DNA of 32,000 nt. Source: Bellilinea caldifistulae (GTDB taxonomy: Bacteria; Chloroflexota; Anaerolineae; Anaerolineales; Anaerolineaceae). Shown piece by piece: positions 21,036 to 21,903 of this stretch. Location: contig NZ_LGHJ01000010.1 of the NCBI RefSeq assembly GCF_001306055.1, positions 154,264-186,263 on the forward strand, written 5' to 3'. Below the pieces are notes generated by a model that saw only the letters and a program-made list of their open reading frames with translations, was not told the origin of the DNA and did not search any database. The position numbers were made by a program, and so were the translations under genes. Every line of letters starts with the position of its first letter. Position 1 is the stretch's first letter.

Positions 21036-21903
21036 GCACTTTTCCAAACCAGCGTCCCGCTGAATGCCTCAAACACAACGCCCCGCCGGGCGTTGTGCGC
21101 CCGACCGGGGCGTTCCGTGAGCCGTGCGGTAACACGCTCACGGTTGAGGCAAGCAGACCGTGACTGCTCACCCCATCCGCGATTGTAGCATGAGATGACA
21201 GCCCTCTGCAAGCCTCTCACAAGGAATGTGATTTGCGGAGGGCTTTGTGTTTGCCGTGCGGTGTTGGCTCAAGGCCTTTCAGGCGGCAGGTGCTTGAGGG
21301 CGGGTTCAAGTCCCGCCCGCCTGAACTCCGTTTTTGCCACGCTAACTTCGGCCGTGTAGGGAGGCGTGGAGCGGGGCTGAGTCATCAGCACCCGGCGGGG
21401 CAAGGGACGGGGAGCCCTCGCCTGACGGAGCGGCAGGTGAGACCATCGGAAGCCTGCCGGGGGACGTGACAGCCGGGAGAGACCGGCAAGCACCTTGACA
21501 AGCGACATGGTAATCCTCTGTTTCCAACCGCCATAGACGGGCAGGATGATCCCTGATCTTGCGGTGGGTGCAAGTCCCACCCGGTTGGACTGCCAAACCT
21601 GTCGGTGTCGTTGCACCATCAACGGACAGGTGCAGCCCGGCACACCCTAACCAGTGTCGGGAAACAGGCAGGGTGACGGCCCGGAGAGACGGGAATACTT
21701 CCCTGCCTGCAATGGTGGGGGGCAGCCCGGAGAGACGGGCAGAGGGGTTGGGGCTGAATCAGCCCAGCGAAGGCGAGGCAGACCCTCAAAGAGCCGGACT
21801 TGCGCGAGGGCAATCCCTCTCACTTGATCAAGCGGGAGTAGCTCAACGGTAGAGCGGCGGCGTCATGAGCCGCAGGGTGAGGGTTCAAATCCTACTTCCC
21901 GTT
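21036..21903 (+). ncRNA. Candidate large (about 0.87 kb) structured non-coding RNA with three tRNA-like modules; family unknown
   Basis: No credible ORF. Strong promoter immediately upstream. Many perfect helices verified by eye, repeated hairpin modules with compensatory changes, and a tRNA-like cloverleaf at the end. See findings. Confidence 0.5.
21832..21903 (+). tRNA. tRNA-like element with CAT anticodon (atypical; possibly a pseudo-tRNA, element-encoded tRNA or processing signal)
   Basis: Acceptor GCGGGAG/TTCCCGT (two G-U pairs). D arm GCTC-AACGGTA-GAGC. Anticodon stem GCGGC/GCCGC with loop GTCATGA. T arm GAGGG-TTCAAAT-CCTAC (one A-A mismatch). G32 and G37 are atypical for Met/Ile tRNAs. 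Confidence 0.45.

Follow-up and report, generated by a model that had tools for sequence, protein, structure and literature searches.

Conserved tRNA-like modules in a non-coding RNA at the edge of Anaerolineae prophage-like elements

Why should a bacterial non-coding stretch carry truncated tRNA shapes that cannot decode, and what might such shapes do for the element that encodes them? The question was raised by a 32,000-nucleotide stretch of the Bellilinea caldifistulae genome (contig NZ_LGHJ01000010.1, positions 154,264 to 186,263), hereafter the window. The first-pass annotation, made from the letters alone, had described in it two tRNA-like minihelices, whose coordinates and letters all agreed with the sequence on checking. 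Both minihelices are real and evolutionarily conserved, far beyond chance, and they belong to a non-coding RNA of about 0.85 kb at the edge of Anaerolineae prophage-like elements.

Genomic setting and layout of the RNA

At about 100 Anaerolineae loci, a homologous gene-free stretch lies directly after an excisionase-like HTH_17 gene and beside a host tRNA gene. In the window, this gene (20481-20936; like all features described below, on the + strand) encodes a HTH_17/MerR-like, excisionase- or RDF-like protein of 151 aa (Pfam HTH_17, 1.5e-8). The product matched recombination directionality factor and excisionase families in PHROGs, and its approximately 300 homologues are mostly in Anaerolineae/Chloroflexota records. 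The HTH_17 gene is always immediately upstream of the RNA, and the host tRNA gene (for Pro, Lys, Val, Arg, Asn or Met) is found about 90-160 nt before the HTH_17 gene. Homologues of the RNA stretch are 71-77% identical, and at least three copies of the RNA family occur in one cultivated thermophile. Downstream of the RNA no conserved partner enzyme was found; a small Zn-ribbon ORF, sometimes a weak pol-beta-thumb-like match, and an SSB gene were all that was seen there.

The HTH gene transcript appears to be closed by an intrinsic-terminator-like hairpin with a T run (20943-20967). The predicted promoter of the RNA follows (20986-21028), with TTGAAA at 21000-21005, a 17-nt spacer containing TG, and TATACT at 21023-21028. 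Its -35 element is located inside an operator-like inverted repeat (20986-20998/21005-21017). The homologues in alignment A1 retain the promoter, and among the three copies from the same genome the arms of the palindrome differ, yet stay palindromic.

From 5' to 3', the RNA consists of a closed 5' domain, module 1, an insert that some members lack, module 2 and a 3' domain, after which a tRNA may follow. The 5' domain (21034-21275), delimited by RNAalifold on 30 homologues and by an nhmmer coverage map, is closed by pairing of the predicted 5' end (about 21034-21040) with about 21260-21267, and encloses several hairpins of nearly invariant sequence. The 163-nt insert (21326-21488) is present only in long-form members; its first nucleotide directly follows module 1 and its last is that of a GACAG motif (copy 1, see below), and in short-form loci, nhmmer matches break exactly at 21325 and 21489. 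A conserved spacer (CACCTTGACAAGCGACATGGTRATCCTCC..., 21489-21523) ends in a CCUCC-type pyrimidine tract before module 2, and in 34 of 42 distinct homologues a CCTCC is found no more than 25 nt before this module. The 3' domain (21589-21831) carries motif copies 2 and 3, and the paralogue L292 is without the stretch 21693-21801 of this domain. The full cloverleaf noticed earlier downstream of the modules is a tRNA-Met(CAT) (21832-21904; 53.9 bits), which forms the 3' end of the RNA. Family members differ in this terminal tRNA, which may be tRNA-Met, tRNA-Thr or tRNA-Leu or may be missing. In the window, the tRNA-Met has an A.A mismatch in its T stem, at which L292 has a proper pair.

No protein-coding gene was called in the stretch at nine annotated loci (L124, L126-L128, L130, L131, L292, L293). 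The largest cluster of "conserved ORFs" downstream looks like spurious frames across G+C-rich RNA. Positions 21174-21609 correspond to a run of 1105 N in GCA_001050215.2. A misassembly copied from paralogue L292 was considered and discarded, because about 22 differences within 21174-21609 mark the window sequence as a distinct copy. The RNA is so repetitive that assemblies break in it, and this accounts for its having been missed by annotation.

Structure and conservation of the two modules

Module 1 (21278-21325) is a tRNA-like minihelix delimited by folding, homologue alignment, RNAalifold and a covariance model. Its T arm, GCGGG-TTCAAGT-CCCGC (21300-21316), is flanked by CAGGCGG (21280-21286) and CCGCCTG (21317-21323), which belong to an acceptor-like helix of 9 bp (21278-21286/21317-21325; strands TTCAGGCGG/CCGCCTGAA), so that the stack of 5+7 bp reaches up to 5+9. 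The A following module 1 had been read as an unpaired, discriminator-like base; this has to be withdrawn, since A21324 has U21279 as its partner in 29 of 30 homologues. A 13-nt linker (21287-21299) with a near-invariant GG precedes the T arm. In 30 distinct homologues, 97.4% of the alignment cells are paired, and both-sided changes were found in five pairs (26 cells), a result equalled by none of 500 shuffles; RNAalifold predicted the minihelix independently from the same number of homologues. In the minimum-energy fold of the window's module 1 alone, an alternative hairpin (GCUUGA/UCAAGU) beats the T arm, but this hairpin is not conserved among homologues. The first and third acceptor pairs are C1-G72 and G3-C70, the 3' flank is AACT and no CCA is encoded. 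In some homologues the slot is filled by other tRNA-like types, such as a short acceptor with a hairpin and a T arm (L127) or two tandem T arms (L130).

Module 2 (21524-21588), defined by its sequence, homologue covariation and a covariance model, is a D-armless tRNA-like fold. It consists of a 7-bp acceptor (CCAACCG, 21524-21530; CGGTTGG, 21582-21588), a 10-nt linker (21531-21540) with a conserved AG and a near-invariant GG, an anticodon-like inner hairpin of 7 bp with an 8-nt loop (21541-21547/21556-21562) that abuts the T stem, and the T arm GGTGGG-TGCAAGT-CCCACC (21563-21581) with a 6-bp stem; acceptor and T stem together stack over 13 bp (6+7). The description "acceptor plus T arm only", given earlier for both modules, is therefore right for module 1, which has no anticodon arm, and wrong for module 2, whose 32-nt spacer holds the inner hairpin. 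This hairpin has at least 6 bp in 21 of 28 homologues, as against about 2 in shuffles. The T-loop core UGCAA is invariant, with G at the position of tRNA U55. In the 28 homologues, 98.9% of cells are paired and both-sided changes occur in three pairs (11 cells), and the observed covariation was equalled in 0 of 500 shuffles; a model-fitted alignment of 48 distinct sequences showed compensatory changes at 12 of 20 pairs. Pair 3-70 is A-U or G-C, the 3' flank is ACTG, and again no CCA is encoded. In one subfamily a complete second tRNA-like unit (4-bp acceptor, hairpin and TTCGAGT T arm) is nested inside module 2.

Several observations tie the modules together. Their T-arm/3'-acceptor segments form a 29-nt direct repeat with 79% identity, and both begin with C1-G72 followed by A73, as in the window's tRNA-Pro. 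A covariance model built from module 2 homologues gave 82.4 bits for module 2 and 35.8 bits (E = 3e-5) for module 1, with a single further match in 0.96 Mb. The recovery of module 1 by this model and the near-invariant GG in both linkers indicate that the two modules are one design. A strict scan, which demanded a T[GT]C[AG]A loop on a T stem of 5 bp and, with no gap to that stem, an acceptor of 7 bp, returned 33 matches in 1.2 Mb (the window and the fetched loci) compared with 0-2 in five shuffles, a chance rate of about 0.03 expected per 32 kb. In the helices of the modules, G.U cells outnumber A.C cells (8 versus 4 and 9 versus 4), which, with the promoter and the orientation of the T-loops, supports the + strand as the transcribed one. 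Each module can thus be modelled as a coaxial stack of acceptor and T arm in which the T-loop and a GG-containing substitute for the D-loop probably form a tRNA "elbow".

The module structures are under selection. In the comparative alignment, both helices of both modules are held by compensatory changes (97-99% paired), which bears out the acceptor/T-arm coaxial stack proposed in the first-pass annotation and also supports its view of a compensatory difference between the copies and of a three-unit transcript ending in a real tRNA. The same evidence weighs on the idea that the modules are decayed tRNA genes, i.e. internally deleted and now functionless remnants of a former tRNA array. Such an origin would fit the presence of a real tRNA in the same region, the odd tRNAs called by ARAGORN in related and unrelated loci, and the T-stem mismatch of the window's own tRNA-Met, and degenerate copies are frequent in phage tRNA arrays. 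However, the same truncated architectures are shared by about 50 distinct homologues, which belong to different genera and whose compensatory substitutions keep every helix. Neutral decay is contradicted by this covariation, and at the identity given above the homologues are not recent copies; we consider this explanation very improbable.

A DNA-level function can be judged on similar grounds. The modules could repeat the 3' end of a tRNA (T arm plus acceptor) and give the element's tyrosine integrase a site for attachment or recombination. Such integrases often use the T-arm region of tRNA genes, the elements adjoin tRNA genes, and the window encodes an integrase (30765-31583). Nevertheless, the module sequences are unchanged whatever tRNA gene neighbours the element, each acceptor has its 5' strand, which covaries with the 3' strand, and G.U cells are tolerated. 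Moreover, the modules are 9 kb away from the integrase gene, and the 3' end of tRNA-Pro has no repeat of at least 12 nt elsewhere in the window. A role as DNA sites is therefore barely conceivable, and att-site remnants were dropped for lack of that repeat and because the modules are independent of the identity of the neighbouring tRNA.

Neither module is a tRNA by the usual tests. ARAGORN and Rfam at the gathering threshold called only tRNA-Pro and tRNA-Met in the window, and at E <= 10 Rfam gave no tRNA match on either module; the lone match from the tRNA clan at this level was to tRNA-Sec (21241-21321; 16.2 bits against a threshold of 47). A 7-bp acceptor on a 5-bp T stem with a 7-nt loop (UUCRANY) is present, with the loop of module 2 deviating (TGCAAGT), while a full cloverleaf scoring above threshold, with D arm, anticodon arm and 7-nt anticodon loop, is not seen in the modules. 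The G3.U70 pair, terminal ACCA, tag frame and pseudoknots of a tmRNA are likewise absent, and ARAGORN detected no tmRNA. Similarity to mascRNA-menRNA (RF01684) at 21280-21323 stayed below threshold (21.5 bits against 42.5, E = 0.14). The terminal position and CCA end of viral 3'-terminal tRNA-like structures are also lacking, both modules being internal to the transcript and without encoded CCA. What the modules do share with a pre-tRNA-like substrate is a coaxial stack of about 12 bp and a T-loop/D-loop elbow that is predicted to form.

The GACAG-GAGAGA motif and possible roles of the modules

The insert and the 3' domain contain a further structured element, composed of a stem, GACAG, a CCSG-GAGAGA-CSGG hairpin and CA, which is not in Rfam. 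In copy 1, stem 1 (21425-21427/21465-21467) surrounds an inner helix (21431-21437/21453-21459) and is followed by GACAG (21468-21472), the hairpin CCGG-GAGAGA-CCGG (21473-21486) and CA (21487-21488). Copy 2 has stem 1 at 21644-21648/21670-21674, GACGG at 21675-21679 and the hairpin at 21680-21693. The degenerate copy 3 has GGCAG at 21721-21725, the hairpin at 21726-21739 and CA at 21740-21741. The motif is widespread in phages of Proteobacteria, cyanobacteria and Chloroflexota, occurring among the matches listed in more than 200 phage contigs, including those of cultured coliphage-type phages; it is carried, for instance, by Enterobacteria phage mEp390 (NC_019721, 27445-27471) and Cronobacter phage CS01 (NC_048088, 20475-20497), and the IMG/VR contigs L046, L074 and L101 offer examples of motif-tRNA pairs. 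Among the matches listed, the hairpin ended 4-7 nt before the 5' acceptor strand of a tRNA or tRNA-like structure in 59 of 86 phage-contig cases; in one family member (L253) it ends 6 nt before a tRNA-Leu.

The loop of the motif is invariant and its stem covaries (CCGG/CCGG, CCCG/CGGG, ATCG/CGAT, CCTG/CAGG). This rules out a DNA promoter or operator, as a palindromic protein site would show the opposite. The HK022 put antiterminator was also rejected, no match being found within HK022 24-30 kb. The published put RNA is a V-shaped element of about 70 nt with two stems, for which only ten sequences are known (PMC9378689). Rfam searches with the gathering threshold as well as with E <= 10 covered the window, its closest phage analogue (L001), 16 and then five more motif-bearing loci and a 221-nt Mu-like instance, and returned tRNAs and noise only. 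On this basis the identities Mu-gpT-DE, GOLLD/ROOL, Y RNA and int-alpA were dropped, as was a cobalamin riboswitch, suggested by a resemblance to GGUGCAAGUCC, which had no Rfam support. A blastn search of the 1-kb stretch against annotated phages gave tRNA matches only. Literature searches by sequence and topic found no description in the portions of the sources available, and the motif may be among the unnamed candidates of the IMG/VR catalogue of candidate RNAs (PMC10690425).

What, then, could the modules do? We tentatively favour, at somewhat less than an even chance, a role as RNase P/RNase Z processing handles that cut the RNA into defined pieces. The operator-controlled promoter at the tRNA-proximal end of the integrative, prophage-like element would produce the non-coding transcript of about 0.85 kb, in which host tRNA-maturation enzymes would recognise the elbows and stacks as they do in pre-tRNAs. 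RNase P would cut 5' of both modules and of the terminal tRNA (at about 21279/21280, about 21523/21524 and 21831/21832), and RNase Z or exonucleases would trim the 3' sides of the modules. Stable folded pieces would result, namely the closed 5' domain, the insert with its GACAG end and the 3' domain, and the downstream mRNA would be freed from its leader. The GACAG motif probably acts together with cleavage, either by serving as a structured leader or by capping the new 3' end.

RNase P is known to process tRNA-like structures in the phage P4 CI RNA, the P1/P7 C4 RNA and MALAT1/mascRNA. The processing reading fits the borders of the optional insert, set by module 1 on one side and by a closing GACAG motif on the other, and the presence in the same RNA of a leader motif found 4-7 nt before the 5' ends of genuine phage tRNAs. 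It also fits the sequence just after module 2, where A and CTG resemble the 3' flanks (A/T, then CT) of the window's tRNA-Pro and tRNA-Met genes, both without encoded CCA; tRNA genes of this kind are the substrate type of RNase Z. As module 1 types interchange and the terminal tRNA varies or is absent, a generic tRNA-like handle seems to outweigh any specific sequence. Other features count against processing. The helix of module 1 runs two pairs further (-1/-2 with 73/74), a disadvantage for RNase P, the stack of module 2 has 13 bp instead of 12 bp, and its T-loop has an invariant G in place of U55. In addition, motif copy 1 lies 35 nt from module 2 rather than the 4-7 nt seen before real tRNAs, and the second tRNA-like unit nested in module 2 would be superfluous for a pure cleavage signal. 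The nested units and the 4-bp acceptors of some variants suggest that architecture or mimicry fits these members better than punctuation does.

In the case of architecture, the stretch would be one large folded RNA, possibly an oligomer like ROOL or GOLLD, in which T-loop/GG elbows are building blocks or docking sites, for example for the GAGAGA loops, and no cleavage takes place. RNase P, riboswitches and rRNA commonly use T-loops as architectural motifs. The invariant U-G-C-A-A of the module 2 T-loop, unlike tRNA, the nesting of tRNA-like units, the nearly invariant helices of the 5' domain and the G+C content of the stretch (0.60-0.62 versus about 0.46 in the flanks) all agree with such a role. 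The stretch also folds far better than shuffles (z = -5.7), although the reverse strand folds nearly as well (z = -5.3), which makes the z-score weak evidence. Furthermore, the free gain and loss of the 163-nt segment and of the 3' end among members is hard to square with one compact fold, no long-range covarying contacts were found, and no large RNA in Rfam, ROOL and GOLLD included, was matched. We regard this explanation as unlikely.

In the case of mimicry, the modules, released or embedded, would act in trans as decoys or platforms for proteins that bind acceptor and T arm. Proposed targets are the CCA-adding enzyme, T-loop modification enzymes, EF-Tu, SmpB-like factors and defence toxins attacking acceptor ends, which would be sequestered or redirected once the early promoter of the element fires. 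The plan of module 1 (acceptor, D-loop-like linker and T arm without anticodon arm) is that of the tmRNA tRNA-like domain, C1-G72 is followed by A73 in both modules, and each RNA has several tRNA-like units, with additional nested ones in some members. The timing would suit takeover or anti-defence, the promoter in its operator-like palindrome heading a replication-type operon (small Zn-ribbon ORF, SSB). On the other hand, A73 of module 1 is paired, the modules have no encoded CCA, G3.U70 or anticodon arm, and no conserved partner protein is encoded nearby. A decoy function is doubtful to a similar degree.

Comparison with known systems

Large structured prophage non-coding RNAs that often occur beside tRNA genes are already known in GOLLD and ROOL, and YrlA (bacterial Y RNA) carries a tRNA-like module within a non-coding RNA. 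These RNAs differ from the present one in architecture. GOLLD, ROOL and other large Rfam RNAs gave no match in 20900-21950 even at E <= 10, nor in related phage loci, and no rsr/Ro or rtcB neighbours were seen at annotated loci. The tRNA-like domain of tmRNA resembles module 1 in having an acceptor stacked on a T arm and a D-loop substitute without a D stem. However, its halves are the 5' and 3' ends of an RNA of about 360 nt with a tag ORF, G3.U70 and a terminal (A)CCA, whereas module 1 is internal and contiguous (48 nt).

Mitochondrial tRNA punctuation is similar in that tRNA or tRNA-like units separate RNA segments and that RNase P and RNase Z tolerate truncated shapes, and D-armless mitochondrial tRNAs have the same three-helix shape as module 2. 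The mitochondrial units are decoding tRNAs, in contrast to the bacterial or phage units described here, which have no anticodon function.

P4 CI, P1/P7 C4 and T4 species 1/2 are small RNAs of temperate or lytic phages, cut from longer early or immunity transcripts via tRNA-like features. Like them, the present RNA lies beside an immunity or regulatory region. They come from other hosts and have no sequence relation to it, and the present RNA is much longer and highly conserved, has several tRNA-like units, and yielded no target complementarity.

In MALAT1 and MEN-beta, an embedded tRNA-like structure recruits RNase P and an upstream structured element becomes the new 3' end. The succession of GACAG motif, short spacer and tRNA or tRNA-like structure has the same geometry, with cleavage presumed in our case. 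MALAT1 is eukaryotic and has a U-rich triple helix upstream in place of the two hairpins found here, and the two share no sequence or model membership. It is conceivable, if rather speculative and on balance improbable, that the family represents a phage or bacterial counterpart of MALAT1-type 3'-end formation. RNase P would be drawn to an early transcript under repressor control by the elbows of the two modules and the tRNA, stable non-coding RNAs would arise as the GACAG-GAGAGA element caps the 3' ends or aids cleavage, and the freed minihelices might decoy enzymes or toxins.

Across these systems, tRNA-like structures in longer RNAs are a recurrent way of borrowing the tRNA-processing machinery. 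To our knowledge, the embedded bacterial examples are few and old (P4 CI, P1 C4, T4 species 1/2), and a family of about 100 loci with clear covariation offers a well-populated system. The GACAG motif, tied to tRNA 5' ends, is a lead on how phages may process or stabilise tRNA and late-gene transcripts. As the family grades the tRNA shape from minihelix through D-armless and nested forms to the full tRNA, it lends itself to testing which features of a tRNA are required in vivo by RNase P, RNase Z and the CCA-adding enzyme.

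Anatomy and covariation of the two modules

A sequence check reproduced the coordinates and letters of both modules as first described. Both lie on the + strand. Module 1 is composed of CAGGCGG (21280-21286), a 13-nt linker, the T arm GCGGG-TTCAAGT-CCCGC (21300-21316) and CCGCCTG (21317-21323). Module 2 is composed of CCAACCG (21524-21530), 32 nt, GGTGGG-TGCAAGT-CCCACC (21563-21581) and CGGTTGG (21582-21588). Two details of the first-pass annotation had to be revised. The A following module 1, regarded there as unpaired and discriminator-like, extends a 9-bp helix: U21278 and U21279 are paired with A21325 and A21324 in 25 and 29 of 30 homologues, respectively. 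Module 2 was described as an acceptor plus T arm only, but its 32-nt spacer holds a 10-nt linker and a conserved 7-bp hairpin abutting the T stem. The hairpin persists in 21 of 28 homologues, among which its stem takes many different sequences; shuffles gave about two.

A GG is near-invariant in the linkers of both modules. In tRNA, the GG at the corresponding place (G18-G19) locks onto the T-loop, and by analogy the linker GG of the modules probably does the same. The T-loop is invariably U-G-C-A-A-N-U in module 2 and U-U-C-R-A-N-U in module 1. Taken by itself, the window's module 1 has as its minimum-energy fold a different, long hairpin, which is not conserved among homologues. Neither module was recognised by ARAGORN or Rfam, whose only calls were the flanking tRNA-Pro (20320-20395) and tRNA-Met(CAT) (21832-21904); at E <= 10, Rfam returned sub-threshold matches only (mascRNA, 21.5 bits; tRNA-Sec, 16.2 bits).

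A strict scan for acceptor helices placed directly against a T arm found 33 instances in 1.2 Mb (the window and fetched loci), compared with 0-2 in shuffles. A covariance model built from module 2 homologues scored 82.4 bits on module 2 and 35.8 bits on module 1 (E = 3e-5), with one borderline match elsewhere in 0.96 Mb. Since this model also matches module 1, the two modules are versions of one design, module 1 being module 2 minus the middle hairpin.

Covariation of both helices in aligned homologues, which had been proposed as a check, was present. For module 1 (30 distinct sequences, alignment A3), 97.4% of cells were paired and both sides had changed in five pairs (26 cells), a level reached by none of 500 shuffles; controls with slid helices fell to 30-53% paired. 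Its T stem occurs as GCGGG/CCCGC, ACGGG/CCCGU, GCAGG/CCUGC and AUGGG/CCUAU, and RNAalifold, applied to the 5′ domain plus module 1, predicted the minihelix independently. For module 2 (28 sequences, alignment A4), 98.9% of cells were paired, with the acceptor variants CCAACCG/CGGUUGG, CCAGCCG/CGGCUGG and CCGGCCG/CGGCCGG; compensatory changes affected 12 of 20 pairs in a model-fitted alignment of 48 distinct sequences, which leans toward structure by construction. G.U cells outnumbered A.C cells in the module helices (8 versus 4, and 9 versus 4). Combined with the promoter and with the direction of the T-loops, this excess places the RNA on the + strand.

A modular RNA of tRNA-targeting elements

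The modules are located within a stretch of about 800 nt without a convincing ORF, whose G+C content is 0.60-0.62, whereas that of the flanks is about 0.46. The stretch starts after a terminator (20943-20967) and a sigma-70-type promoter rated good (21000-21028; TTGAAA, 17-nt spacer with TG, TATACT), and ends with the tRNA-Met. The promoter -35 lies within an inverted repeat (20986-21017; 3507-3545 and 3520-3550 in the same-genome copies L292 and L293), whose arms vary among the three copies and are palindromic in each. This repeat is probably an operator with copy-specific (immunity-type) recognition. Pyrimidine tracts of CCUCC type (e.g. GAUCCUCC, CACCUCCUUUC), similar to the anti-Shine-Dalgarno 3′ end of 16S rRNA, occur at 21510-21523 and at the equivalent position in homologues (alignments A1 and A5); they lie upstream of module 2 in 34 of 42 distinct homologues and of module 1 in 12 of 40.

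The protein encoded at 20481-20936 is the HTH_17/excisionase-like BECAL_01352 of Bellilinea caldifistulae (Anaerolineae, Chloroflexota), with about 300 homologues mainly in Anaerolineae/Chloroflexota records. In all contigs with close homologues, the gene is followed by 0.9-1.6 kb devoid of genes, and this gap has 71-77% identity to window positions 20937-21693. Protein-alignment scans of genome and metagenome collections yielded 160 loci, of which about 100 matched the non-coding stretch by nhmmer, always immediately downstream of the HTH gene. Upstream of the HTH gene, at a distance of about 90-160 nt, is a host tRNA gene for Pro, Lys, Val, Arg, Asn or Met, and the window encodes a tyrosine integrase (30765-31583; Pfam Phage_integrase, 4e-41). 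The elements are a family of tRNA-targeting integrative, prophage-like elements. The modules are neither decayed tRNA genes nor att sites; both candidates are ruled out by the covariation and by the modules' independence from the target tRNA.

In relatives, the RNA is followed by SSB and small ORFs. A small ORF with Cys pairs (...GDNYGLTCLDCG...) at 21925-22028 starts 20 nt past the tRNA-Met, and 11 other loci have a related Zn-ribbon-like ORF after the RNA. The element also holds an RHH-PIN toxin-antitoxin pair at 23127-23836 (gene calls on L124, the public scaffold copy), and most of its other ORFs had no match in Pfam or PHROG.

By nhmmer coverage, the near-universal core has two blocks. 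One runs from the promoter through the 5′ domain to the end of module 1 (21325); the other, beginning at 21489, takes in the spacer, module 2 and the 3′ domain as far as about 21700. About half of the family members also have the segment in between (21326-21488), and the others lack it; its breakpoints coincide exactly with the ends of module 1 and of a GACAG motif (described below). The 3′ end is variable, with a tRNA (Met, Thr or Leu) or without one. At the position of module 1, locus L127 (3740-3815) carries a tRNA-like unit in which an acceptor of 4 bp is combined with a UGGGAUUG linker, a hairpin and a T arm, and L130 (3754-3830) carries two tandem T arms. In a large subfamily (L234, L232, L226, L284, L250 and others), a short-acceptor unit of the L127 type is nested in module 2, replacing the simple hairpin (acceptor GGUG/CACC of 4 bp, linker AUUGGGAUUG, hairpin, T arm with UUCGAGU). 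Whole RNA segments are gained and lost at module borders.

The Bellilinea genome contains two further copies, L292, a long form differing from the window at scattered positions, and L293, a short form. The public scaffold DF967971.1 has 1105 N (L124 4694-5798) where the window has 436 nt (21174-21609), and both modules fall inside this run; many metagenome and MAG contigs also terminate within the RNA. The gap and the broken contigs arise because the RNA is a dispersed repeat. The 3′ end of L293 (4200-4310) shows a hairpin GUCCC-CCGGUGGUGCAA-GGGAC in two repeats, with GGUGCAA in the loop. The T stem of the window's tRNA-Met (GAGGG/CCTAC) has an A.A mismatch and a G.U pair; that of the L292 tRNA (4249-4321) is perfect (GAAGG/CCTTC). 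The two stems show coupled differences at 21881 and 21894, and the window's tRNA-Met may be undergoing decay.

The GACAG motif and its tRNA-like neighbours

The RNA stretch carries three copies of GTGAC(A/G)G-CCSG-GAGAGA-CSGG-CA. They lie at 21468-21488, 21675-21695 and 21721-21741 (the last degenerate); with the upstream stem 1, the first two span 21425-21488 and 21644-21695. The 19-nt core was found in at least 120 IMG/VR contigs in a first scan, where by our rough estimate only a few are expected by chance, and the motif overall in more than 200 (loci L001, L004-L123, L297-L391). An anchored alignment was conserved from -5 to +21, and covariation between the two S positions is nearly complete (73 G:C, 44 C:G, one mismatch). 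Further stem variants (AUCG/CGAU, CCUG/CAGG) occur with the loop unchanged, which indicates an RNA hairpin rather than a protein-binding palindrome. Stem 1 (A-C-N-N-N ... N-N-N-G-U, loops of 3-65 nt) occurs at about twice the shuffle frequency (74 versus 37 of 118) and is therefore likely, yet less secure.

The motif matched no Rfam 15 family and, by sequence, nothing in the literature searched; it may be among the unnamed candidates of PMC10690425. It appears to be undescribed. In cultured phages of E. coli (mEp390), Cronobacter (CS01), Pseudomonas, Stenotrophomonas, Rhodobacter and cyanobacteria it lies in unannotated intergenic DNA. A same-strand ORF ends no more than 100 nt upstream of about 40% of the instances, and one starts no more than 60 nt downstream of about 36%.

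The motif has a striking link to tRNAs. Among the matches listed for the first set, a tRNA or tRNA-like minihelix starts 3-9 nt downstream of the motif in 8 of 122 instances. A dedicated scan found at least 104 contigs with a T-loop 48-78 nt past the motif hairpin; among the matches listed, the acceptor 5′ strand starts 4-7 nt past the hairpin in 59 of the 86 with a good acceptor. Because the scan tolerated approximately -2 to +36 nt between hairpin and acceptor, this peak was not imposed by the pattern. In the family member L253, 6 nt separate the end of the motif from a tRNA-Leu. A small-scale version of the entire arrangement occurs in an unrelated viral contig (L001, 8120-8430), where an unusual 92-nt tRNA-like unit that encodes its CCA is accompanied by two copies of the motif and by a unit resembling module 2, with the loop TGCAAGT (R1 score 24.7 bits, E = 0.016). 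The 92-nt gene (8126-8217), called tRNA-Ala(GGC) by ARAGORN and missed by the Rfam tRNA model, has a body of about 60 nt replacing the normal D and anticodon arms, and the two motifs and the module 2-like unit directly follow it.

Possible roles and relation to known RNAs

The modules are selected RNA structures reproducing the half of tRNA that is read by the maturation machinery, and their transcript also bears a genuine tRNA, together with a leader motif that is specific for phage tRNAs. The most economical mechanism, by analogy, would be cleavage at the modules by RNase P and by RNase Z or exonucleases. Such cuts would free the closed 5′ domain, along with other segments, and would separate the downstream mRNA from them. 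P4 CI RNA, P1 C4 RNA and MALAT1/mascRNA are precedents for this mechanism. We place cleavage at slightly under an even chance, because the module 1 helix runs past the expected cleavage site, because the module 2 T-loop is not that of a tRNA, and because units that are nested or have a short acceptor hint that the functional entity may be the elbow as such, serving as a decoy or docking site.

tRNA-like domains inside other RNAs are already known from tmRNA, YrlA, mascRNA, viral TLS and phage CI/C4. By membership tests, the prophage RNA family belongs to none of these, and it unites several graded tRNA-like shapes within a single conserved RNA.
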